A stretch of DNA of 32,000 bases from Candidatus Nanogingivalaceae bacterium (GCA_015257795.3 CP072208.2:390001-422000), one strand, 5' to 3'. Counted from the stretch's first letter, positions 1 to 13,809 are shown. Notes: generated by a model from the letters alone, not told the origin. Translations and numbers: made by a program.

Positions 1-2044
1 TATGACCAGTTGAGTCAAACAAGATATGAGAAATATCATCCTTGATCTCTTGTTTCATATCTGCAATTTCGATTTTACGTTCAACTTCGCGATCGGTTTT
101 AATTCGCAAATAATGACGAATCTTACCAATCAATTCTTCACTATCTTTAAGATATACAAATCCACGAGAAATCACATCTGGAGTCTTCAATAACCGACCC
201 GTTTTCTTACTAATAGTTAGAACAATAATAAAGATTCCCTCTGTCGAAATATGCAAACGATCTTTTACAACAGCATCATGAACCGTGTTTCCAGTATTGT
301 CATAAAGAATTGATCCAACATGAACGCGGCCACCTTTTTTAATTGTGCGCTCTTTGGTTAATTCAATAATATCACCGCTATCCGCAACAAGAATTTCATG
401 TCGTTTTAGCCCAAGCACTTTTTGCGCCATTTCGGCATTATGTTGAAGCATATAGAATTCACCGTGAACTGGCAAGTAGTTTTTTGGACGAATAGTTTCA
501 ACCAATCGAACATGATCATCATAATATGCATGCCCCGAAAGATGTAGAGGGCCAATTCCGTGATAATGACCACGGCCGTGTTGAATTACACCGGCACCCT
601 CGCGCAACAATCCATCCACTGTTGAGGCAACTCTAGGCTCATTTCCAGGAATAGGACTTGATGAAAACACCACAACATCAGTTGCTTTAATTTTCACAAA
701 TCGGTGAGCTCCAGTTGCCATGCGGTTCAAAACAGCATTTAATTCACCCTGTGAGCCGGTACATACGATTGAGACTTTCGAATCATCAAGTTTAACGATA
801 TCTTCCATTTTCACAATAACATCTTTAGGAACTTTAATTTTTCGTGATCGCAAAGCAACTTCAATTGCGTTAATCATTGAGAAACCTGCAAAAGCCACTT
901 TCCTATTATGTTTTACCGCTTCATCGAGAATCAATTGCAATCGATAAATCTGACTTGAAAAACATGAGAAAATCAATCGAGCGTGAGGGTAAGCTGTCAT
1001 AACCTCGCCAACACTTTCACCAATGGAATATTCACTGTGTGGGTGTGTTCCCGGTGTATCAATATTAGTACTTTCGTTCATTAATAGATCAACGCCCTCT
1101 TTTTGCGCAATCTCAGCAAGACGTGGAAGGTCGAACTGTGTGTCGACTGGATCATTTTCGAAACGCCAGTCACCCATATGTACAATGTTTCCATTTGGCG
1201 TACGAATAACCATCGCTACACATCCTGGAATTGAGTGAAGAACATGCACGAACTCAAGCGTCATATGCTCAGAAATCCTAATCTGTTCGTGTTTAAATGG
1301 ATCAACAACTTGATAGTTTGGTGAAACTTCAACAACCGCCTCTTCCATTTGACGCTTAATCATACCAATCGTAAAATCAGTAGCATAAATTGGAATATTG
1401 TTTCCAAATTCAGGCAAGAGCTGACGAACTGCACCAATGTGGTCAAGGTGGGCATGAGTAAATGCAACCGCTTTAACTTTATGCATATTATCTTTCAAAT
1501 ATGTAATATCCGGCGTCATAAAGTTTACACCAGGGTAGTCTTCGTTAGGAAAAATTGAGCCCATATCGATAACTAGGATTTCATCCATATACTCGATTGC
1601 GAACATATTTTTACCAATTCCAAACTCGCCCAAACCACCAAGCGGAATCACTCGCACGCTATCTTTTTCTGGGCGAAGTTTTTTCAACTTCGAAGCCGTT
1701 AATTGTTCACCATCAAAACCATTGAACAGCGATTTGTTAACAGGGATATTTACGATATGTTGCGTTGCGCGCATATTAATGTCATTTGAGATCATTCTTT
1801 GAGCACGAATAACCGCACCACGCCTTGTTGTTGTTGGTAGATTTACCTTTTTTGCATCATTTTTTTGTGAATGATTGTGCTTAGCGATATTCTTTGCTTT
1901 TTGCTGAGCTACTTTTGCAGACTTCTTTTCGCTTTCTTTCTTGCTGTTTCCAACGTATTTATCGCGATTTTTTTGCAGATCTTGCGCCTTTTTTTGTAAA
2001 TTAGCCCGCTTTCGAGCCTGCTTTTCATTAAAATTATTAGTCAT
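1..2044 (-). CDS. rnj: Ribonuclease J (metallo-beta-lactamase / beta-CASP). The C-terminal end runs off the window. It carries a Lys-rich N-terminal extension of about 135 aa.
   Basis: My own minus-strand translation from the ATG at 2044 (AAGGAG just upstream) stays open down to position 2. It reads MTNNFNEKQARK...VIPLGGLGEFGIGKNMF..., contains the HxHxDH motif FTHAHLDHIG, and continues ...LHLSGHAYYDDH.... It is missing from the ORF track because there is no in-window stop. Confidence 0.85.
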   Translation of the reverse strand, partial: MTNNFNEKQARKRANLQKKAQDLQKNRDKYVGNSKKESEKKSAKVAQQKAKNIAKHNHSQKNDAKKVNLPTTTRRGAVIRAQRMISNDINMRATQHIVNIPVNKSLFNGFDGEQLTASKLKKLRPEKDSVRVIPLGGLGEFGIGKNMFAIEYMDEILVIDMGSIFPNEDYPGVNFMTPDITYLKDNMHKVKAVAFTHAHLDHIGAVRQLLPEFGNNIPIYATDFTIGMIKRQMEEAVVEVSPNYQVVDPFKHEQIRISEHMTLEFVHVLHSIPGCVAMVIRTPNGNIVHMGDWRFENDPVDTQFDLPRLAEIAQKEGVDLLMNESTNIDTPGTHPHSEYSIGESVGEVMTAYPHARLIFSCFSSQIYRLQLILDEAVKHNRKVAFAGFSMINAIEVALRSRKIKVPKDVIVKMEDIVKLDDSKVSIVCTGSQGELNAVLNRMATGAHRFVKIKATDVVVFSSSPIPGNEPRVASTVDGLLREGAGVIQHGRGHYHGIGPLHLSGHAYYDDHVRLVETIRPKNYLPVHGEFYMLQHNAEMAQKVLGLKRHEILVADSGDIIELTKERTIKKGGRVHVGSILYDNTGNTVHDAVVKDRLHISTEGIFIIVLTISKKTGRLLKTPDVISRGFVYLKDSEELIGKIRHYLRIKTDREVERKIEIADMKQEIKDDISHILFDSTGH

Positions 2045-2151
2045 TATTCTCCTTGATTTAAAGCGTTCGAAAAATTGTTTTTAAAGGTCGGATTTTCTCG
2101 AACAAGTAATATTTTAGTACTTTCATTTTACCAAATCTTACGAGGAAAGTC

Positions 2152-2176
2152 AAATAAAAAAAGAGCCCGCGGGCTC
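2152..2176 (-). terminator. Rho-independent terminator after the 178-aa orphan
   Basis: Perfect GC-rich palindrome GAGCCCGCGGGCTC (2163-2176), followed on the minus strand by a T-run (the A-run at 2152-2162 on plus). Confidence 0.7.
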
Positions 2177-2181
2177 AATAA

Positions 2182-2718
2182 CTAAAAAGCAAAAAACGAT
2201 ATTTTTATGCGCTCTAAAAGAGAAAATTTATAACCTCTCTTCTTCAACTCTTTATACAAAATAAAGATCACGTCCTTTTTAGGGTTCGGGATTTTAGCTT
2301 TATTTTTTAAAAGAGTTTTTATACCTTTTAATATAATTTCACGATGTTCGGGTTCTAGATAATCTATTCCGTGATAAACAAATCGTGGTAATATATTTAC
2401 AAACTCCCTTTCGAAAATATTATATTTTTCAAAAATAGATAGTTCAACCATATCTATGTTAGAGATTTCTTTTCTCGCGGCTCTTGAAATATCATATCCA
2501 ACATCTCGCCCAGTGATATCAGAAAGCTCTTTACGGAAAACTTCACAAATATGAATTTTACCTTCAAAGTTCGTAGAATGTTCTTCTATCAATTTTGGAA
2601 TACGCTCTCCAATTGTCTGCACTAAAGCCCGAGGATTACGAACACCCTCCAACGATAAGTCACTTAAAATCCCGATGTATTTGCTTTTTTCGTCTAAAAG
2701 TACTTCTTCTTTTGACAT
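2182..2718 (-). CDS. Hypothetical soluble protein (about 178 aa), no recognisable family
   Basis: ORF-track entry 2182-2733. I moved the start to the ATG at 2718 (MSKEEV...) because GGAGG lies 8 nt upstream. The gene has its own promoter and terminator. Confidence 0.6.
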   Translation of the reverse strand: MSKEEVLLDEKSKYIGILSDLSLEGVRNPRALVQTIGERIPKLIEEHSTNFEGKIHICEVFRKELSDITGRDVGYDISRAARKEISNIDMVELSIFEKYNIFEREFVNILPRFVYHGIDYLEPEHREIILKGIKTLLKNKAKIPNPKKDVIFILYKELKKRGYKFSLLERIKISFFAF

Positions 2719-2750
2719 TTTGGCTACCTCCAAAAAAATAAGATTATTTA

Positions 2751-2780
2751 ACTATACGCTTTTTTTGAATTTTTGTCAAT
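2751..2780 (-). promoter_or_regulatory. Sigma70-type promoter for the 178-aa orphan
   Basis: Minus strand reads TTGACA (2780-2775), an 18-nt spacer, then TATAGT (2756-2751). Confidence 0.55.
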
Positions 2781-2808
2781 AAAAAATCCCTGCATATTTG
2801 CAAGGATA
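2781..2808 (-). terminator. Terminator after paralogue B
   Basis: Minus-strand hairpin UCCUUGCA-aaua-UGCAGGGA (8 bp including one G-U pair), followed by UUUUUUAUU. Confidence 0.55.
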
Positions 2809-2827
2809 TTAAGAGATTCATCAGCTA

Positions 2828-3382
2828 TTACCAACGAATAACCTTACTGACAATAGCAGTCCCAACAGCAATAACATTAGAAAGAACAGGTGCAATAGGC
2901 ATCAAAATAGCTGATAAAAAAATACCGACAACAAAAATACGGTTAGCTACAGTATTCTTTTTTAAATATCTGTCACTTGCATCTATCACATAATCATCTA
3001 TCGCGTAATCTTCTTTCATCATGTCATATTCATTTTCTAACACAAAAGCTACTGCGGGATATTCATCTGCAGGAAAAAGCAGCCATTTTTCACCTTCTTC
3101 CGAATAGAACGCCATGAATTGTTTCGGCGCACGAATTTTGGGCTCTTCAATAATACAATATAAACTACCTGCAGCAAGAAGTATAATACTTACTAGAGCT
3201 CTAACAAGAGATGGATGGAACAAAACTACAATAATACCTAATATAAGACCAAAAACCGAGAGAAGAGCATTTATCCCTTTATAAATTGTTTTTCGACGCC
3301 TACCAAAATATTCTGTCGCCTCATCCATGTTATCAAATACTGGCAATTCTCTGCCGTTGTATTGTTTCTTAACTAGTGTCAT
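2828..3382 (-). CDS. Hypothetical 4-TM membrane protein, paralogue B (184 aa)
   Basis: ORF track. GGAGG lies 8 nt upstream of the ATG. The layout is a basic N-terminus, a TM hairpin, a soluble loop of about 70 aa (IRAPK...EGEKWLLFPADEYPAVAFVLE), then a second TM hairpin. It is a paralogue of 3574-4167. Confidence 0.75.
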   Translation of the reverse strand: MTLVKKQYNGRELPVFDNMDEATEYFGRRRKTIYKGINALLSVFGLILGIIVVLFHPSLVRALVSIILLAAGSLYCIIEEPKIRAPKQFMAFYSEEGEKWLLFPADEYPAVAFVLENEYDMMKEDYAIDDYVIDASDRYLKKNTVANRIFVVGIFLSAILMPIAPVLSNVIAVGTAIVSKVIRW

Positions 3383-3459
3383 AGAAACTACCTCCTAAAA
3401 AATACTTTCGCAAAAGATACGAACATATATTATGATATCATATTTTTTGAATAAGTCAA
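3305..3459 (-). repeat. Conserved 5' module, copy B (promoter, leader and first ~26 codons)
   Basis: By manual alignment, about 93% identical to 4090-4243 over about 155 nt (11 differences). Confidence 0.85.
3432..3459 (-). promoter_or_regulatory. Promoter of paralogue B; its -10 lies inside a 12-bp palindrome
   Basis: Minus strand reads TTGACT (3459-3454), a 16-nt spacer, then TATCAT (3437-3432). The palindrome TATGATATCATA sits at 3431-3442. Confidence 0.45.
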
Positions 3460-3478
3460 TAATAGCTTTTTTAGTTAT

Positions 3479-3592
3479 AAAATAAAAAGACAGCCTTAGC
3501 TGCCTTATTGAGGTGTTTTATGTAAAGTCTTGCAAGACCTTAATCACTTGAGGAGCATTTTTAGTTTTAATTCCTACCTCGATTTGATATAA
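3479..3592 (-). repeat. Conserved 3' module, copy 1: a terminator plus a relic of the last ~25 codons of the 269-aa gene
   Basis: About 95% identical to 4271-4389. It contains the hairpin AAGGCAGC-uaag-GCUGUCUU followed by a U-run (about 3487-3510), and a relic reading ...IEVGIKTKNAPQVIKVLQDFT*. Confidence 0.85.
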
Positions 3593-4167
3593 GGTATTTT
3601 TCTTATCGCCTTATTGCTATTCCTGTGTATTACAATTCTAGCAACCTCAACAATAATCACGACCGCACAAGCAGCATAGCCATTAATAGGGAGTAAAACC
3701 CCCATTAAAATATAGCCTGCAATTGAGAAATACTCTTTTTTTGCATTAATCTCTAGCTGTCTTTCATTTATAGCTGCTATGTAAGCATTTTTCTCTTCAT
3801 CGAGTTCACTCTCTAGTACGAAAGCTACTGCAGGATAATCATCTTTTGGAAAAATCAGCCATTTACCTTCTTTTTTTGAATAAATTAAGCGAACATCTTT
3901 TGCTTTTGGTGCACGAATGTCGGCTTCTGTGCTACAAGAAGCACTATAAATCACAAAACCACCAATAAAGCTGAGAATCAACTCCCCTAAATCTAATTGA
4001 TAGCTAAAAGATAACAAAACGGCTACAAAGAAGCTGTAACAAGCCGAAAAAATAATCATCACCCAAAGAATCGTTTTTCGGGCTTTGCTAAAATGTTCCG
4101 TCGCCTCATCCATGTTTTCGAATACTGGCAATTCTCTGCCGTTGTATTGTTTCTTAACTAATGTCAT
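3574..4167 (-). CDS. Hypothetical 4-TM membrane protein, paralogue A (197 aa), with a chimeric C-terminus
   Basis: ORF track. The first 33 aa are about 80% identical to paralogue B, and the loop motif EGKWLIFPKDDYPAVAFVLE is shared. The last codons (...IPYIKSR*) read out of frame into the relic of the 269-aa gene. Confidence 0.75.
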   Translation of the reverse strand: MTLVKKQYNGRELPVFENMDEATEHFSKARKTILWVMIIFSACYSFFVAVLLSFSYQLDLGELILSFIGGFVIYSASCSTEADIRAPKAKDVRLIYSKKEGKWLIFPKDDYPAVAFVLESELDEEKNAYIAAINERQLEINAKKEYFSIAGYILMGVLLPINGYAACAVVIIVEVARIVIHRNSNKAIRKIPYIKSR

Positions 4168-4243
4168 AAAAACAACCTCCTAAAAAATACTTTCGCGAAA
4201 ATACGAACATATATTATGATATCATATTTTTAAAATAAGTCAA
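4090..4243 (-). repeat. Conserved 5' module, copy A
   Basis: About 93% identical to 3305-3459. Confidence 0.85.
4216..4243 (-). promoter_or_regulatory. Promoter of paralogue A, with the same architecture as copy B
   Basis: Minus strand reads TTGACT (4243-4238), a 16-nt spacer, then TATCAT (4221-4216). The palindrome TATGATATCATA sits at 4215-4226. Confidence 0.45.
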
Positions 4244-4270
4244 CTAACCCCTTCTTTCTCTTTAATTTTA

Positions 4271-4389
4271 AAAATAAAAAAGACAGCCTTAGCTGCCTTA
4301 TTTTTTGAGGTGTTTTATGCAAAGTCTTGCAAGACCTTAATCACTTGAGGAGCATTTTTAGTTTTAATTCCTAGCTCGATTTGATATAA
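4271..4389 (-). repeat. Conserved 3' module, copy 2 (the authentic 3' end of the 269-aa gene plus its terminator)
   Basis: About 95% identical to 3479-3592. It has the same terminator hairpin, followed by a U-run. Confidence 0.85.
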
Positions 4390-5124
4390 TTCTTTTTTTC
4401 CCGGTTGAAATCTAGCTATAACCATAACTCTATCATCTTTGTTAAAAGTTGTTAACTTAATATTAAAGTTATCCTTAGCACGAGATGAAATATTGTTATG
4501 AATACTCTTAAAACACAACAATCCAAACAAAATAATAACAAAAAATACAACAACTCCAACTGCATTTGGTACATTCCTAACAATTATATCCGCCACAATA
4601 GCAAAGAAAGCCAACATGATTGCCATACAGAAAGAATAAAAACTAAATACTTGCTTATTAACTTGGTTATTAATTCTTCTCAAACAGTCAAAAGCTTCTT
4701 TTTGGATATTTGTAGGTTTCTCGACTTCCTTTGTTTTTGGAAAAACATTATACCAAACTAAGTTAGTTTTGTCGTTTCCAAAACGTTCTTTCTCAAATAT
4801 CGGTAGATCTTTGTTTAAATGCCGATGCTTCAGAATACCGATTGTATATCTCATAGCACCAAGGGCAATCTCCATCAATCCGATAAGAATAACTGCATTA
4901 TTGTTTTGCTTCAACATCGAAGCAATTAGCACAAACAACCCAATAAGAATACTTAAATCTATAAAACGATAGATTATCTTATCGTGTTTAAAGAATACTT
5001 CCGCCACCTTGTCTAGCCGCGGAGTTTTTTCATTAATAATTACCGTATCGAACTTAGCTTCTTCATATTCTTCATATTGAATGTTGTTAAAATTCTGCAC
5101 TGTACTGATTTTTGATATTTTCAT
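4315..5124 (-). CDS. Hypothetical 4-TM membrane protein (269 aa), possibly a distant relative of paralogues A and B
   Basis: ORF track. GAGGTGG lies 9 nt upstream of the ATG. There are two TM hairpins separated by a loop of about 60 aa, and that loop contains LVWYNVFPKTKE (compare KWLIFPKDDYP in A and B). The C-terminal ~64 aa look beta-rich and end in a helix. Confidence 0.7.
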   Translation of the reverse strand: MKISKISTVQNFNNIQYEEYEEAKFDTVIINEKTPRLDKVAEVFFKHDKIIYRFIDLSILIGLFVLIASMLKQNNNAVILIGLMEIALGAMRYTIGILKHRHLNKDLPIFEKERFGNDKTNLVWYNVFPKTKEVEKPTNIQKEAFDCLRRINNQVNKQVFSFYSFCMAIMLAFFAIVADIIVRNVPNAVGVVVFFVIILFGLLCFKSIHNNISSRAKDNFNIKLTTFNKDDRVMVIARFQPGKKELYQIELGIKTKNAPQVIKVLQDFA

Positions 5125-5171
5125 AATATCATACCACCTCTTTATTAATTTTCTTTACTCTTTCGAGTAAC

Positions 5172-5186
5172 TTATATATTATATAA
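5172..5186. promoter_or_regulatory. Perfect 7-1-7 palindrome TTATATA-T-TATATAA, a Fur-family-like (PerR/Zur/Fur-type) box
   Basis: Read directly from the sequence. It overlaps the -10 of the 269-aa gene promoter and lies about 25 nt upstream of the -35 of the COG0523 gene. A second inverted repeat, AATACT-tttt-AGTATT, sits at 5185-5200. Confidence 0.35.
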
Positions 5187-5206
5187 TACTTTTTAGTATT
5201 TATCAA
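5178..5206 (-). promoter_or_regulatory. Promoter of the 269-aa membrane protein gene
   Basis: Minus strand reads TTGATA (5206-5201), a 17-nt spacer, then TATAAT (5183-5178). Confidence 0.55.
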
Positions 5207-5210
5207 GTCA

Positions 5211-5239
5211 TTGCCTGGTTTTCAAAAATCTGTTAAACT
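5211..5239 (+). promoter_or_regulatory. Promoter of the COG0523 gene, leaderless-type
   Basis: TTGCCT, a 17-nt spacer, then TAAACT. The ATG at 5246 lies only 6 nt past the -10, and there is no Shine-Dalgarno. Confidence 0.45.
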
Positions 5240-5245
5240 TATTAC

Positions 5246-6346
5246 ATGAATGAAAATTTCGACTTAACCGACTTTTCGAAAGATATCTTTAATGATTTTT
5301 CGAAAACCGAAATTCAAAAAACACAAAATAATCACAAAAAAATCCCAGTTATAATGATTTCTGGTTTTTTGGGTGCTGGAAAGACGACATTATTAAATCA
5401 TCTGCTAAAAACCAATCCCAATCTAAAAATAGGTGCAATCGTTAACGACTTTGGAAAAATAAATATCGACAGCAAACTACTCTCCGGCAACTTAGACCAG
5501 CAAACTATTGAACTTAGTAATGGCTGTATTTGTTGCATGATCGGAAGTAACGGCTTAAGCGAACCTCTAGCTAAACTCGCCAATGAAGATTCTGATCTTG
5601 ACGCAATACTAGTTGAAGCTAGTGGAATTGCCGAACCTTATGACCTTCTTAAAACTTTGCAATATTCCGGGAATAAATATTCCTATTTTGGCGGAAATAT
5701 CTATATTATTGATACTCAAAATTTCGAAAATACTAGTCGGGATTTTCCAACACATTTTAAAAAATGTTTAAAGGCGAGCGATATTGTTGTTTTAAATAAA
5801 ACCGATTTAGTTTCGAAAGATAAACTCAATGATATTGAATCTACGATTCGCGAGCTAAATTCGCAAGCACCCATTATTTATAGTCAAAACTCACAGATTG
5901 ATTCGAAAATAATTTTTTCTTGGGATGAAAAACCTTTTACGGAAAGTATAGAAAACACCCATGACCACAAAAACCATATACATCATGAATTTGAGTCAAT
6001 TTCTTTCGAAACAAGAAAGCCGATCGACCCTAAAAAATTTAATGCTTTTTTAGATAATCTTCCTCAAAATCTTTTCAGAATGAAAGGAATTTGCTATTTC
6101 GGAATGAAAGGTTACGAACAAAGCTTTATAGTGCAAACCGTTGGAAAAACCGTTAATATGACTACTGAAGAATGGGAAGATGAAGAGCCTAAAACTGAGC
6201 TGGTTTTGATTGGTACAAAAATGAATAAAAGCAAAATCATTCAACAACTTAAAAAATTAGAAGATAATTCTCCAGATGAAATTACACCAGAAAATATGGT
6301 AAACTTCGAACGATTTTTCTTAAAAAATAATAAAACCGACCTTTGA
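5246..6346 (+). CDS. COG0523-family (CobW/ZigA/YeiR-like) metallochaperone GTPase
   Basis: P-loop GFLGAGKTTLLNHLL, CxCC motif NGCICCM, NKxD motif LNKTDL, and a His-rich stretch ENTHDHKNHIHHEFE. Confidence 0.85.
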   Translation: MNENFDLTDFSKDIFNDFSKTEIQKTQNNHKKIPVIMISGFLGAGKTTLLNHLLKTNPNLKIGAIVNDFGKINIDSKLLSGNLDQQTIELSNGCICCMIGSNGLSEPLAKLANEDSDLDAILVEASGIAEPYDLLKTLQYSGNKYSYFGGNIYIIDTQNFENTSRDFPTHFKKCLKASDIVVLNKTDLVSKDKLNDIESTIRELNSQAPIIYSQNSQIDSKIIFSWDEKPFTESIENTHDHKNHIHHEFESISFETRKPIDPKKFNAFLDNLPQNLFRMKGICYFGMKGYEQSFIVQTVGKTVNMTTEEWEDEEPKTELVLIGTKMNKSKIIQQLKKLEDNSPDEITPENMVNFERFFLKNNKTDL

Positions 6347-6366
6347 ATGTTTTGGTCGGTTTTATA
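6332..6366. terminator. Bidirectional terminator between the convergent COG0523 gene and pepN
   Basis: Hairpin AAAACCGACC...GGTCGGTTTT, flanked by A- and T-runs on both sides. Confidence 0.6.
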
Positions 6367-6370
6367 TTGC

Positions 6371-8899
6371 TTATATTTTCATTAAGAAATCTTCTACTTG
6401 CTGTTTATCTCGTTCGATTAACTCAATTCGCCCAGAAATTTCACGCTCACCCATTTCAATTGCTCGCGTCAAACTTGGGTCATTTTTTAATGGTTCGAAG
6501 AAATCTTTAAACTCTTGTAATTCTTCTCGTGTTCTTAAAATTACACCGGAATATCGTGGAAAATCATTATAGCTTTTATCTCCATCAAATTTTTGCGTAA
6601 TAGCATCCCAATTATTTCGAAGCCAAGTCCACGCAAGTTTTCGAATTTTCGTGTTTCGAAGTAAATGAACGTACCAACTCAAAACATCTTGCGAACGAAT
6701 TACATCATCTTCAAGCATCTTTTCGAGTAATTTTTTACCCGTTTTAAGATTTTTAGTTGCGGTTAAAGCAATCATAAGATCGTCACGATAATCTACATTT
6801 GTTGTGTTTTGATATTCTTCAATAAGCTTTTCAATCAATTCTGGAGTTTCATCAAATCTTATTTTTGCCGTTAAAATTAAACTTCGAATTTCAGAATCAA
6901 TATCTTCCATATTTTGAGCTTTCGCAAAGATTTCTAACGCACCGTCAATTGCCTCTTTGTTTTCTGCATAAATCATATGCGCAAGAATTGAACTACGATT
7001 CTGCGTATCTTCCTCATCTTCACCGGTCTTTTTGAAGAAACCAAGTCGCTTAAATTCTGATTCTGCCAAACCACCAACAAAATTCTTCATTTTTTGGGAA
7101 CTTTCAGAACCTTCGTCTACAAAAATTTTCAATTCGCCAATCAAGATACTGATCATATCCCAAACATTTAGAGAAGTTTCATTTTTATAGTATTGCAGAG
7201 TTTTCAATAAATCGACACTAGAAATTTCGCCACCCCTTGAAAGCAACGATCGTTCCTGCAAGATCTGTAATCGCGAAACCGTATCTAGCTCACCATTTTG
7301 CACTTTTTCTAAAAGTTTTTCGAAAAGTTCACCTTCGTAATTACTAATAAAATGCGCAACGTTACCTTTATTGAGCTGAACAAAATCACCCGTTTTTTGA
7401 CAAGCTAACTCTTTTTGATTCATCACTTCTGGTAGATTAGGTTGATTTGAACGCAATAAAATTGGCCAAATTCGGTTAGTGTCTTTTCCTTTGCCTATGA
7501 AAAATTGCTTTTGCGAAAGCTCCAGATTATCACCGCTATTTTTTACCAAAACACTTGGATAGCCACTCTGAAGAAGCCATGGATTCATAAAATCCGCGAC
7601 ATTTTTTCCAGATGCTTCACTTAAACATCGCCACAAGTCTTCACCTACCGTATTTTTATATTTAAAACGTTCAAAATATTCACGCAAACCTTTTCTAAAA
7701 GCTTCATCACCAATATATTCTCGAAGCATATTCATTAATCTTGCGCCTTTTGCATACACAATCGCACCATCAAAAATCGTACCGATTTCATCTGGATGAT
7801 GAACAGGAACGTGAACCGATTGAACTCCGTCAATTGCATCGCGGCGTAAGCTCAAAATAGCTTCATTCACCGCAAATTCTTCCCAAATTTTCCATTCAGG
7901 CTCTAATACGTCTGTTGCAAAATATTCCATCATCGTTGCAAATGACTCATTTAGCCACAGCTCATCCCACCACTTCATTGTAACGAGGTTTCCGAACCAC
8001 TGATGCGAAGTTTCATGAGCGATAACCAATGCTACATATTTTTTAGAAGAAATTGAAGATTTTTCATCCGCCAAAAGAGCAGTTTCGCGATAAGTTATCA
8101 AGCCCCAGTTTTCCATTGCACCGCTAGAAAAATCCGGCAAGGCAACGTGATCACATTTTGGAAGCGGAAACTTTTGATCGAAGAAATCTTCATAAAACTC
8201 CAAAACTCTTACGGCAAAATCTAGTGGAAACTTGAGCAGGCTAGATTTTTGAGCTTTAGTCGCCAAAACTGAAACTTCAGTCCCGTTTTTTGTTTTTTTC
8301 GAAACTCTTTGAAGATCACCTAAAACAAATGCTAAAAGATAGGTTGACATTCGTGGAGTTTTTTTAAACTTGGTAATTTTGCTATTTTCAAATTTTTCTA
8401 CTTTTTCGGGGTTAGTATTTGACAAAACTTCTATATCTTTTTGCGAAACGATCCCTAATGAAAAAGTTGCTTTAGCTTCAGGCTCATCGATACAAGGAAA
8501 AACCTCTCGCGCATGATGGCTCTCAAATTGGGTTGCAAAAAGCTCCTTTTTAACACCATTTTCCTTATAATAACAAGGGTAGAGACCGTGCATCGCATCC
8601 GTAATTTTACCTGAAAAACAAATTTTAAAACTAATTTCATCATCTTGATTAAAATTAAATTGATCTATTCCTATCTTGATTTCATCTCCATTTTTCGAAA
8701 AGGTAACCTTTTTATCGTCTAAAAAAACGATTTCTTCAATCTTTAAATCTTTTGCATGAAGAAAAATTTCCTTTTCGTTTTTAACTGTCCCAAAAATCTG
8801 TACTTTTCCTGTAAAACTGCGCTTATCCGCTTGAAATAAATCCAATAAAAGCTCATAGTGCTCAGGATTAAAATCATTAATCAATCTTTTAACACTCAT
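6371..8899 (-). CDS. pepN: Aminopeptidase N (M1-family zinc metallopeptidase)
   Basis: GAMENWG exopeptidase motif and HETSHQWFGN...WLNESFA (HEXXH-X18-E). 842 aa. Confidence 0.9.
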   Translation of the reverse strand: MSVKRLINDFNPEHYELLLDLFQADKRSFTGKVQIFGTVKNEKEIFLHAKDLKIEEIVFLDDKKVTFSKNGDEIKIGIDQFNFNQDDEISFKICFSGKITDAMHGLYPCYYKENGVKKELFATQFESHHAREVFPCIDEPEAKATFSLGIVSQKDIEVLSNTNPEKVEKFENSKITKFKKTPRMSTYLLAFVLGDLQRVSKKTKNGTEVSVLATKAQKSSLLKFPLDFAVRVLEFYEDFFDQKFPLPKCDHVALPDFSSGAMENWGLITYRETALLADEKSSISSKKYVALVIAHETSHQWFGNLVTMKWWDELWLNESFATMMEYFATDVLEPEWKIWEEFAVNEAILSLRRDAIDGVQSVHVPVHHPDEIGTIFDGAIVYAKGARLMNMLREYIGDEAFRKGLREYFERFKYKNTVGEDLWRCLSEASGKNVADFMNPWLLQSGYPSVLVKNSGDNLELSQKQFFIGKGKDTNRIWPILLRSNQPNLPEVMNQKELACQKTGDFVQLNKGNVAHFISNYEGELFEKLLEKVQNGELDTVSRLQILQERSLLSRGGEISSVDLLKTLQYYKNETSLNVWDMISILIGELKIFVDEGSESSQKMKNFVGGLAESEFKRLGFFKKTGEDEEDTQNRSSILAHMIYAENKEAIDGALEIFAKAQNMEDIDSEIRSLILTAKIRFDETPELIEKLIEEYQNTTNVDYRDDLMIALTATKNLKTGKKLLEKMLEDDVIRSQDVLSWYVHLLRNTKIRKLAWTWLRNNWDAITQKFDGDKSYNDFPRYSGVILRTREELQEFKDFFEPLKNDPSLTRAIEMGEREISGRIELIERDKQQVEDFLMKI

Positions 8900-11058: not shown

Positions 11059-13809
11059 ATTTCCAGAATCGCTAGAACTGCTGTTCGAACTTATCGAAGA
11101 CGGCCCTGTATAACTCTTTGAAATTTTATAACCGCCAGAATCAGAAACTTCAACGGTTATATTCTGGCCAGCTTTACTGAATGTGTAGTCTGTAGATAAA
11201 GTATTTCCAGTTGGGACGGCGGTACTAATAGTAGCACCATCAACTTTCACTACAACAGAACTTATGTCAAAATTACCTTTATTAATATTGACATTTATTC
11301 TATATGTATTCGAATTCGGATGTCTTGAGTAAGAAACACCTGATATGCTTGGTTGGCTATCAGAGCACTTGTGTATATCGTCCTCTTCATTGATGTTATA
11401 TCCATCTGGAACTGTAACCGATTTCTTCTTCGAGATAGGGTCTGTTACTTCAAATACAGTTAACTTAATACGGGTTGAGTCGGGTGTACATTTTGTAGCT
11501 TTCTTTTTCGAAATACTATCAAATTCGACTTCTCTAGATGTTGAACCGGTTTTGTTTTTATCCCACCAAGAAGGACAAATATCAGTTCTTCCATTTATAG
11601 TACAGCTTCTAATACCCGCGGGTTTATCTATCTTATCGCCAGGTTTCCATTTTCCGTTTGCGGCATAAACCTGTTTATGCACGGAACTCATATAGTCATT
11701 CACTACTCGGCGCACAGCACTGTTATCGGAAGACCTTAGAGCTCGTCCATCATGATTACCACTCCAAACACCAGTAGCTACAACAGACGAATAGCTCATC
11801 ATCCACGAATCTTTTGCGGCTCCCTTACCGTTGTCAGTTGTTCCTGTTTTTGAAGCCGTCCAAACCCCTGGAACAACAAATCCATAACTTCGACTCTGAC
11901 CTCCAAAGGTTGTCGTTCGAGCACTAGCATCAGAAAGGATATCCGTCAATTCGTACGCTGCCTGCTGGTCAATAACCTGCTTAGATTCATCTTTCCATTC
12001 ATAAATTTTTTGATTCGAAGAATTTTTAACCTCAGTAAAGTAAGTTAGCTCTTTGTATACACCTCCGCGAGCGATAGAAGCATAAGCATTTGTATGCTCA
12101 TCTTGATGAACCGAACATCCACCACCAATAGCGGCAGAAAGACCAGCATTACTATTCTTACAGTAAGACTTATCGCCAAGTTGCTGTGCAACACTAACAC
12201 CATCGTTAACTCCAACTATCGCTAAAGATTTAACCGCAGCAATATTTAAAGAGTTACCCAAGCTAAATCGTATAGGAACACTTCCATAAAACTGTTTAGA
12301 TGCATTTCTGAGTTGACAAGAACCGTAAGTCCCTGCACAATATTGAGAATCAATATTTTCATCCTTTAGAATAGTACCTGGGGTATAAACTGTATCTTTT
12401 TTATTGAATAAAGCAGCGTAATCAACTACCGGCTTAATACTTGACCCAGGATCTAGAGAAGAAGTCGCAGCATTCGTTTGACCATAACCTTCTTTATTAT
12501 AGTCAACTGATCCAACCTGGGCAATAACTTGTCCAGTAGTAACATCCACTGATGTCATAGCTATATTGTCGGCACCGCTAATATACAGTGTTTTAGAACC
12601 TGCATTAACAGCCGATTCAGCAAGTGATTGAGCTTTAAGATCTACTGTTGTTTTTACGGTAAGACCTCCGGCACCGACAACTTTCACACCAAGCTTTTCT
12701 TCAAGTTTCTTTTTAACTTCCTGTACAAAGTGTGGTGCTTTGATGTTTGCATATTGATCTCTCTCTGGTTTAATAGTCGCCAAAATATCAAAATCCTTAG
12801 CTTCCTTAGCTTCTTTTTCAGTGATAAATCCACAAGAAACCATATCGTTTAATACTTTGTGTTGACGCTCAACTAGACTCTTGTTAAATTCTCTATTGTA
12901 GGGATTGTAAATTGCGGGGTTATTAGGAATAGAAGCCAATAGGGCCGCTTCAGCTAAAGTTAGATCTTTAGAACTTTTTCCGAAGTATGTTCGAGCACCA
13001 GATTCAACTCCGTTTCTTCGTCCACCATAAGGAGACTCATTTAGATAGAGTGACAAAATCTGATCTTTATTATACATTTGTTCAACTTGAACCGCCAAAA
13101 TCATTTCTTTAATTTTTCGCGGTATTCCACTTAAACCACGCTCATTTGACTCGTTCGAAAAATAAACCTGCTTGATTAATTGCTGAGTTAATGTTGAACC
13201 ACCCTGAGTAGCACCACCCTTAAAATTATTAACAAAAGCTCGAACGATAGCCGTCAAATCAACGCCTTTATGTTTATAGAAATCCCTGTCTTCAATAGCG
13301 ACTGTAGCTTTTTTAACATAGTCGGATATCTCAGAATTCTCAACAACTAGCTTATAATCTCCAGAACCTTTATCTTCCCATAAAAGCTCACCGTTACGGT
13401 CGTAATACTTAGAAACAGTCGTCTGAACTCGTTTCGCCAATTCTTCAGGTTTGATCTGATTTAGGTCTTTTGAGACGTAAGCAAAAGCAGCAGCAATAGC
13501 AATTCCGCTAAGAATAATTATTGCGCCTAAAATTTTTAGGCCCATAAACAAACCTTGTTTACTAAACCAATATTTCAAAACTCGTTTTGGATGCAACCTA
13601 TAAAAGAATCTCTTCACTGGATCTTTTGGCAAGCTTGCAAGGTATTCCGCCCTTTCGCGAGCCCTAGAATCTTTTTTCTCTTTCATTCTATGCGCTAAAT
13701 TTGTATATAAACCTAGATTATTCTGCCTTTTGAGTGCACTACCTTTCTTCAAGGATGTACGTTTTTTGGTAGAACTCTTTTCTTTATTAAGCCTATTTCT
13801 TCTATCCAT
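11056..13809 (-). CDS. Class A penicillin-binding protein (GT51 transglycosylase plus transpeptidase) with a C-terminal extension of about 230 aa
   Basis: GT51 motifs EDRDFYKHKGVD, GGSTLTQQL and RKIKE. Transpeptidase motifs SSIKP (SxxK) and SKTGTT (KTG). I moved the start to the ATG at 13809 (MDRRNRL...) because a consensus promoter sits inside the first 13 codons of the track ORF. Confidence 0.85.
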   Translation of the reverse strand: MDRRNRLNKEKSSTKKRTSLKKGSALKRQNNLGLYTNLAHRMKEKKDSRARERAEYLASLPKDPVKRFFYRLHPKRVLKYWFSKQGLFMGLKILGAIIILSGIAIAAAFAYVSKDLNQIKPEELAKRVQTTVSKYYDRNGELLWEDKGSGDYKLVVENSEISDYVKKATVAIEDRDFYKHKGVDLTAIVRAFVNNFKGGATQGGSTLTQQLIKQVYFSNESNERGLSGIPRKIKEMILAVQVEQMYNKDQILSLYLNESPYGGRRNGVESGARTYFGKSSKDLTLAEAALLASIPNNPAIYNPYNREFNKSLVERQHKVLNDMVSCGFITEKEAKEAKDFDILATIKPERDQYANIKAPHFVQEVKKKLEEKLGVKVVGAGGLTVKTTVDLKAQSLAESAVNAGSKTLYISGADNIAMTSVDVTTGQVIAQVGSVDYNKEGYGQTNAATSSLDPGSSIKPVVDYAALFNKKDTVYTPGTILKDENIDSQYCAGTYGSCQLRNASKQFYGSVPIRFSLGNSLNIAAVKSLAIVGVNDGVSVAQQLGDKSYCKNSNAGLSAAIGGGCSVHQDEHTNAYASIARGGVYKELTYFTEVKNSSNQKIYEWKDESKQVIDQQAAYELTDILSDASARTTTFGGQSRSYGFVVPGVWTASKTGTTDNGKGAAKDSWMMSYSSVVATGVWSGNHDGRALRSSDNSAVRRVVNDYMSSVHKQVYAANGKWKPGDKIDKPAGIRSCTINGRTDICPSWWDKNKTGSTSREVEFDSISKKKATKCTPDSTRIKLTVFEVTDPISKKKSVTVPDGYNINEEDDIHKCSDSQPSISGVSYSRHPNSNTYRINVNINKGNFDISSVVVKVDGATISTAVPTGNTLSTDYTFSKAGQNITVEVSDSGGYKISKSYTGPSSISSNSSSSDSGN

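Follow-up and report, generated by a model that had tools for sequence, protein, structure and literature searches.

Gene content and expression signals of the locus

A stretch of 32,000 nucleotides from the genome of a Candidatus Nanogingivalaceae bacterium (GCA_015257795.3 CP072208.2:390001-422000; hereafter, the window) was analysed at the interval between the gene for RNase J (rnj) and that for a COG0523/CobW-type GTPase (COG0523), in which four open reading frames (ORFs), all on the minus strand, encode proteins of 269, 197, 184 and 178 amino acids (p269, p197, p184 and p178; together, the islet). By its flanking genes, the source organism was placed as an oral Saccharibacterium of human oral clade G6 (Ca. 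Nanogingivalaceae). The interval was shown to be a lineage-restricted, strain-variable accessory locus with a demonstrated mode of evolution. The coordinates of the genes, expression signals and homology blocks are collected in Table 1.

A sigma70-like site (10-11 of 12 consensus matches) and a strong Shine-Dalgarno sequence lay ahead of each of the four genes, and a GC-rich hairpin followed by a T-run was found directly 3' of each stop codon. Terminator-like sites in the interval numbered 9, against 1.3 expected from shuffled sequences; in the next 20 kb of the window, 18 were counted against 13.6 expected. An earlier reading of the window by a model (the first-pass annotation) had assigned a promoter, a Shine-Dalgarno sequence and a hairpin terminator to each ORF; every one of these signals was located, and at the level of sequence signals the four separate transcription units are real. 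The start of p178 was placed at the ATG at 2718 because all homologues begin with MSKE. The description of the islet as low in GC did not hold up well: its GC content was 0.326 against 0.363 for the window, a marginal deviation of about 1.5 standard deviations under the mean. The coding regions of p184 and p197 were at the window average (0.355 and 0.364), and the neighbouring COG0523 gene was as low as the islet (0.323), the dip continuing into that gene. No RNA gene was detected in the window by Rfam and tRNA scans, and the scanned window genes beyond the islet were all housekeeping genes.

A perfect 12-bp palindrome, TATGATATCATA, lies over the -10 region of both paralogue promoters (3431-3442 and 4215-4226) and is absent elsewhere in the window. 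An operator function is conceivable, as is a mere place in the duplicated block; since the palindrome is restricted to the two duplicated promoters, it provides no regulon information.

Table 1. Genes, putative expression signals and homology blocks at the rnj-COG0523 interval (window coordinates)
Feature	Position	Strand	Remarks
rnj (RNase J)	1..2044	-	conserved left border of hot spot; extends past window end
Terminator hairpin behind p178	2163..2176	-	
p178	2182..2718 (longer ORF to 2733)	-	soluble protein, 178 aa; adjoins rnj
Promoter-like site of p178	2751..2779	-	TTGACA-17-TATAGT
Terminator hairpin behind p184	2786..2807	-	
p184	2828..3382	-	second tandem paralogue, 184 aa; cassette type B-Y
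Central homology block in p184	3029..3106	-	encodes KWLLFPADEYPAVAFV; repeat D3
5' homology block of p184	3284..3459	-	elements as in p197
Promoter-like site of p184	3432..3459	-	
3' homology block, copy 2	3475..3601	-	relic of p269 3' end with terminator, behind p197
Terminator hairpin behind p197	3487..3506	-	
p197	3574..4167	-	first tandem paralogue, 197 aa; cassette type A-X
Central homology block in p197	3805..3882	-	encodes KWLIFPKDDYPAVAFV; repeat D3; chimera crossover maps here
5' homology block of p197	4069..4243	-	-35, -10, 5' untranslated region, Shine-Dalgarno, first ~30 codons; repeats D1, D5
Promoter-like site of p197	4216..4243	-	
3' homology block, copy 1	4268..4398	-	last ~24 codons of p269 with terminator; repeats D2, D6
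Terminator hairpin behind p269	4280..4299	-	within duplicated 3' block
p269	4315..5124	-	269 aa; adjoins COG0523
Promoter-like site of p269	5178..5206	-	TTGATA-17-TATAAT, 11/12 matches
COG0523/CobW-type GTPase gene	5246..6346	+	conserved right border of hot spot

Homology blocks and recombination of the tandem paralogues

The 184- and 197-aa proteins were confirmed as paralogues (38% identity, E = 1e-34). Their genes alternate conserved blocks with hypervariable cassettes that encode transmembrane (TM) hairpins. Three conserved blocks were distinguished: the promoter, 5' untranslated region and first ~27 codons; the cytoplasmic KWLxFPxxxYPAVAFV block in the centre; and a p269-type 3' tail with its terminator, which lies upstream of each paralogue. 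DNA identity between p184 and p197 was 93-95% between the -10 region and codon ~27, fell to ~40-47% over the first hairpin, rose to 85% at the central block and was 40-50% downstream of it. The two copies of the 3' block were 91-93% identical; a tblastn search with residues 243-269 of p269 gave a match at 3521-3601, and the last 8 codons and stop of p197 fall in the duplicated block in another frame. This relic of p269 was found in all strains that carry the p197 slot.

In the alignment of the p184/p197 family, two types of N-terminal half (A and B, the latter with subtypes) and two of C-terminal half (X and Y) were recognised, and all four combinations occur. From this segment pattern, a deletion between the central blocks of p197 and p184 is expected to leave a single A-Y gene, and such a gene was found in four contigs from different samples (L067 and L069-L071), where one gene replaces two. 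The single-copy chimeras were mostly 77-100% p197-like to about nucleotide 300 and then 90-100% p184-like almost to the stop codon, a p197(5')/p184(3') layout with the crossover in the central block. Contig L067 looks like a direct deletion derivative of a window-type array, because its p269 is of the same type as that of the window and it is otherwise window-like. Two copies were present in the window and most strains, and one in L001, L067 and L069-L071. These comparisons of sequences show that the conserved blocks are sites of homologous recombination, through which cassettes enter new combinations and the copy number shifts between one and two.

Presence and synteny of the islet in related genomes

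The first-pass annotation had proposed an undescribed accessory module. Among related genomes both presence and copy number were found to differ, the opposite of a block conserved in single copy and in synteny across the lineage, and the proposal stands. The rnj-COG0523 gap was ~210-300 bp long and held no gene in four relatives (L019, L021, L022 and L024); it held one gene, for a 300-aa 4-TM protein, in L029; two genes in L003-L018, for a p269-type protein with an MKISKI start and for a p178 relative of 238-260 aa; three genes in L001; and four in the window. Protein identity between the window and the L003 group was 95-96% for RNase J, 75% for PepN (pepN) and 71% for COG0523, and 27-29% for the islet proteins. 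Exceptional conservation was seen in RNase J (protein identity to L001, 99.85%), which directly adjoins the fastest-evolving genes of the region.

In contig L016 the segment (1604-6764) is inverted relative to COG0523. The membrane protein encoded there has 298 aa and is a clear relative of p184 and p197 (hhalign 97%, E = 3.5e-11) that carries an additional C-terminal domain; no relationship was detected with the p269 family profile. This longer sequence suggests that the ancestral form was longer.

Several further observations were made in the relatives. Past the window's left end, a second small variable spot separates rnj from recG in L035-L050: most strains have three short genes there (127, 76/77 and 84 aa), L040, L047 and L049 have none of the three, and L048 and L050 have a reduced or different set. 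In L030 (10001-13609, on a 666-kb contig of a metagenome-assembled genome), the COG0523 and pepN matches were divided into several fragments that overlap or differ in frame, and the islet genes were split, which points to an indel-rich assembly or to pseudogenes. In L023 (2395-2904; Ca. Nanogingivalis gingivitcus), recG and not rnj lies upstream of COG0523, and the gap holds a single gene for a 169-aa soluble protein without a tblastn match to the four islet proteins.

Strain variation and rates of divergence

Diversity was compared among 18 contigs from independent oral metagenomes, and allele types were assigned in 23 strains. Nucleotide diversity was 0.06-0.22 across the three membrane-protein genes against 0.02-0.045 in the flanks, and 0.03-0.05, slightly above the flanks, in p178. 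The hypervariable stretch was sharp-edged near window positions 5146 and 2773, with dips in diversity where the 5' ends of p197 and p184 are conserved. The ratio of nonsynonymous to synonymous divergence (dN/dS), determined by the Nei-Gojobori method among strains, was 0.00 for rnj, 0.09 for COG0523, 0.37 for p269, 0.38 for p178, 0.45 for p197 and 0.65 for p184. Both TM hairpins of p184 and hairpin 2 of p197 reached 0.94-0.99, with 0.52 for hairpin 1 of p197, 0.47-0.73 for the hairpins of p269, and 0.08-0.46 for the paralogues' conserved segments (N-terminal and central-loop). The p184 slot was the most polymorphic, with at least 5 hairpin-1 types among the 23 strains; the p197 slot had 2 hairpin-1 types, p269 had 3 x 3 module types with recombinants, and p178 was of a single type. 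ORFs were intact in the typed strains except for one 5'-shortened p197 (L045), and the frames stayed open and hydrophobic. Judged by intact ORFs, strong Shine-Dalgarno sequences, promoter-like sites and terminators, the genes are maintained.

The main rival to a selected role for the variable parts is that these are lineage-specific membrane proteins under relaxed constraint and devoid of a specificity function, in which TM helices need only hydrophobicity and drift fast, the conserved cytoplasmic blocks carry the real function (for example, membrane organisation or scaffolding), and recombination is a by-product of tandem duplication. That dN/dS was at most ~1 and never clearly higher, that damaged alleles exist (a frameshifted variant, P0113, and the shortened p197 of L045), and that the islet is dispensable, since some related species have none, are all in keeping with drift; orphan genes are, moreover, common in genomes of the Candidate Phyla Radiation (CPR). 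However, nonsynonymous divergence (pN) in the TM hairpins of p184 was ~0.19-0.21, which exceeds the COG0523 value (0.012) ~15-fold and the rnj value (0.001) ~200-fold, whereas synonymous divergence there was only ~1.3-2 times higher. At least 5 discrete types of TM cassette coexist and reassort within one species cluster, frames stay open through segments that evolve at the neutral rate, and a much-reduced genome retains 3 kb with four strong expression signals. On balance, drift is considered a serious but rather unlikely explanation.

Family and fold searches

The four proteins had been described as orphans, and they remain so: no meaningful match was obtained in Pfam, NCBIfam, PADLOC or PHROGs, either for them or for more distant relatives. 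When 1.84 billion cluster representatives were searched exhaustively with an HMMER profile, 11 matches were returned, all of the same family; homologues were confined to close relatives, none of them with Pfam domains. Profile searches of the PDB with the islet families gave nothing credible, the sole named public annotation retrieved was 'hypothetical protein', and no paper describing the rnj-COG0523 locus was found in the literature. The searches support the view that the islet families are without relatives outside one sub-lineage of the Nanogingivalaceae.

An AlphaFold2 (AF2) model of p184 from a 32-sequence alignment was unusable (predicted local distance difference test, pLDDT, 53; predicted template-modelling score, pTM, 0.27). 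In this low-confidence model, only two strands of confident length (89-94 and 99-104) were followed by a disordered linker. A resemblance to bacterial PH-like modules of the YdbS/YdbT type, raised with reserve in the first-pass annotation, was not substantiated: no bPH family was among the Pfam matches listed at E <= 1 for the four window proteins, and bPH_2 (PF03703) was absent among the 25 most-hit Pfam families shown for 32 family members. The islet proteins resemble bPH_2 proteins in having a TM hairpin followed by a short strand-rich cytoplasmic segment, but in the low-confidence model this segment is only ~35 aa long, with 2-3 strands and a helix.

Weak matches of the first TM hairpin to DUF4231 were obtained (E = 0.0028); among 32 family members, 12 gave such a match, the best at E = 9e-4. 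The scores lay below the curated cut-offs (18.5 bits against 24.7 for DUF4231; 11.8 against 100, with E = 0.14, for SLATT_6), and of the two window paralogues p184 (B-type) alone gave such matches, none being obtained for p197 (A-type). As the SLATT-type match hinges on a hypervariable cassette, it cannot be family-level homology. The matches to DUF4231/SLATT, DUF334 and DUF2207_C, being sub-threshold, cassette-dependent and located on the hypervariable first hairpin, were rejected as compositional.

These matches bear on an abortive-infection or toxin-antitoxin-like module, in which a 2-TM or 4-TM SLATT-like effector, controlled by p178 as sensor or antitoxin, would kill the cell or halt it when a phage attacks. 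Besides the first-hairpin matches to DUF4231 and SLATT_6, the pairing of a membrane with a soluble protein, which is common in defence systems, and the location in a variable hot spot would fit such a module, and a cytoplasmic helix followed by a TM hairpin is shared with SLATT/DUF4231 effector domains. Yet all these matches fall under the curated cut-offs, and the unrelated 2-TM families DUF334 and DUF2207_C match as well or better. PADLOC, including Kiwa KwaA/KwaB, was compared with nine proteins of the islet and its relatives and gave zero matches at E <= 1; the genes are monocistronic by their signals and not operonic; and no nucleotide-signalling or sensor partner (SMODS, SLOG etc.) was found at the locus, where the neighbours are p178, rnj and COG0523, and there is no associated signalling enzyme. 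The module is thus judged very unlikely.

Topology and relationship of p269

The common topology of p269, p197 and p184 stated in the first-pass annotation was reproduced from hydropathy and charge counts: two TM hairpins separated by a central loop of 68-76 aa. Both termini of the three proteins are consistent with a cytoplasmic location (N-in, C-in), and the external loops are predicted to be 4-8 aa long. In p269 a conserved cytoplasmic loop, LNKDLPIF...VWYNVFPKTKE, lies with the two predicted hairpins, and a C-terminal domain of ~60 aa is predicted; in the sister clade the protein is represented by sequences of 238-252 aa starting with MKISKI.

A shared two-hairpin architecture alone establishes no homology, and the inclusion of p269 in a three-member family had to be given up: hhalign of p269 against the p184/p197 profiles gave a probability of 2% (E = 0.023), and BLASTP of p269 against the paralogues gave at best E = 0.006 over 28 residues, in a register unlike that of the loop motif noted earlier. 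That motif was no better than shuffled controls. When the first TM hairpin of the p184/p197 family was removed to align the earlier motif with the BLASTP motif, the hhalign score was 13.5, against up to 14.2 for shuffled controls. The idea of a split domain, in which the p269 loop would correspond to the N-terminus plus the central loop of p197 with a TM hairpin inserted, was rejected as its score was not above shuffled controls.

The predicted topology is also relevant to the possibility that the islet encodes proteins of the interface between epibiont and host, which would set the host bacterium for attachment or feeding and diversify with host range. In favour of this, the organism belongs to a group that is described as obligately episymbiotic, and the locus is strain-variable and lineage-restricted. 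With predicted external loops of only 4-8 residues, no signal peptide or exposed domain, and conserved parts that are predicted to be cytoplasmic, however, a function at the host interface appears quite improbable.

The soluble protein p178

The AF2 model of p178 consists of nine helices (pLDDT 84, pTM 0.78), and the protein is predicted to be all-alpha and cytoplasmic. It carries a conserved C-terminal YKFSLLERIKISFFAF, and relatives of 238-260 aa hold the same position in sister clades. A fold search of the PDB with the model gave nothing significant (best E = 0.04, TM-score 0.3-0.4), and a search of a viral structure library gave no match. The matches to 14-3-3 and helical-repeat proteins (E = 0.04-0.1, TM-score 0.3-0.4) were discarded as generic helical packing with no shared fold. 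A profile search of the PDB with the p178 family gave the restriction enzyme BstYI (E = 0.017 over ~160 residues); this identity was rejected, the model being all-alpha, the D of the invariant N-I-D stretch not being kept in the longer relatives, and no significant fold match being obtained.

A probably chimeric phage contig with part of the islet

In a 12.5-kb contig, L053 (IMGVR_UViG_3300006745_000047), a myovirus-like tail module (baseplate hub, wedge and tail fibre) is fused to p184 and p178, and the islet part is 99.9% identical to the window. The join, at 11332-11350 of the contig and ~3435-3454 of the window, consists of a 19-nt string, TTATTCAAAAAATATGATA, common to the p184 promoter and a phage ORF. 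The contig is probably a chimeric assembly at this shared 19-mer, a real phage-host recombinant being the lesser but conceivable possibility.

Phage morons and superinfection-exclusion proteins of the HK97 gp15 and T4 Imm type are small, fast-evolving inner-membrane proteins encoded in self-contained promoter-gene-terminator units. The islet resembles them in that each single gene has its own promoter and terminator and in its slightly low GC, and contig L053 links a tail module of a myovirus-like phage to p184 and p178; both points could be read in favour of a phage remnant or cargo (moron-like, for example for superinfection exclusion), left in the chromosome or still phage-borne. Against this, the 19-nt shared string of that junction lies inside an otherwise intact phage ORF, islet genes were not seen in the fetched stretches of 13 related phage contigs, and neither junction was present in the metagenome collection. 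Zero islet homologues were found in 50,697 phage genomes and zero matches in PHROGs, and the flanks were housekeeping genes in 23 of 23 strains, the islet lying in a prophage in none of them. A phage origin or vehicle is therefore held to be highly improbable.

A possible role in intramembrane immunity or exclusion

The reading that we tentatively favour, by analogy and at less than even confidence, is a polytopic intramembrane immunity or exclusion role against membrane-acting antagonists. The proteins would act within the membrane, with almost nothing exposed outside the cell; specificity would reside in the TM hairpins, and the conserved segments on the cytoplasmic side would provide a shared scaffold or a place of docking, perhaps for p178. 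The antagonists may be membrane-depolarising or pore-forming toxins of host or competitor bacteria or, alternatively, phage proteins that insert into the membrane for DNA ejection. If a polymorphic antagonist exerted diversifying pressure, this would account for TM cassettes that are kept diverse and shuffled. An immunity family had been among the suggestions of the first-pass annotation; it is likewise preferred here, by evolutionary analogy and not by homology or experiment.

The analogy is with immunity arrays of type VII secretion systems (T7SS) in Firmicutes (esaG/DUF600, tipC and tsaI/DUF443; Garrett et al. 2022, PMC9484751). In tandem T7SS immunity genes (esaG, tipC), recombination at conserved homology blocks results in gene loss and expansion, and in the case of TsaI, immunity to a membrane-depolarising toxin is conferred by a polytopic membrane protein whose gene has one conserved 5' block (PMC9484751). 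The islet shares with these arrays non-identical tandem paralogues and homology blocks at the 5' end, in the middle and at the 3' end, recombination at which leads to loss or expansion (PMC9484751). It differs from them in having no sequence relationship, no adjacent polymorphic toxin and only one or two copies; its variable parts are the TM hairpins themselves, and its families are confined to one CPR lineage. No Pfam or NCBIfam match placed the islet proteins in DUF600, DUF443 or TipC.

Immunity proteins to pore-forming colicins (Cai/Cbi type) are small polytopic inner-membrane proteins with 3-4 TM helices, and they probably owe their specificity to helix-helix recognition of the toxin inside the membrane. 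The islet membrane proteins are likewise small and polytopic, but there is no homology, the colicin immunity genes adjoin a colicin gene, and their products lack the conserved cytoplasmic loop of ~70 aa.

Several points weigh against an immunity or exclusion role. Library and profile searches gave no homology to any immunity, exclusion or defence family, and neither the islet nor the flanks of 23 strains nor the scanned window genes included a toxin, secretion or phage gene; a cognate toxin gene, or a piece of one, was likewise not found at the locus. There are one or two copies of the paralogues, unlike the long strings typical of orphan-immunity arrays, and the families are not shared horizontally between taxa, as those of immunity islands often are. 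A dN/dS near 1 can equally mean relaxed constraint, recombination confounds site-model tests, and the predicted structure of p184 is of no use at a pLDDT of 53.

A more far-reaching version of the immunity or exclusion role is that the TM cassettes form an unrecognised intramembrane specificity system of ultra-small episymbiotic bacteria, in which shuffled membrane modules, docked on a conserved cytoplasmic domain and p178, would guard the single membrane of the epibiont against membrane-inserting proteins made by hosts or phages. This is a long shot; if true, the system would help to decide which hosts or phages a strain survives.

Implications for the biology of oral Saccharibacteria

Saccharibacteria have tiny genomes and depend on host bacteria, and little is known of the genes that underlie their conflicts with these hosts, with competitors and with phages. 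The locus is among the fastest-evolving stretches beside some of the most conserved genes of the lineage, and it provides a clear, testable mechanism of diversification, in which cassettes are exchanged and the copy number changes at conserved blocks. If the genes are merely fast-drifting orphans, the locus is still a useful strain marker. If the TM hairpins are specificity determinants, it would offer an example of recognition within the plane of the membrane and a handle on the strain-level ecology (host range, phage resistance and toxin immunity) of an uncultured oral lineage.

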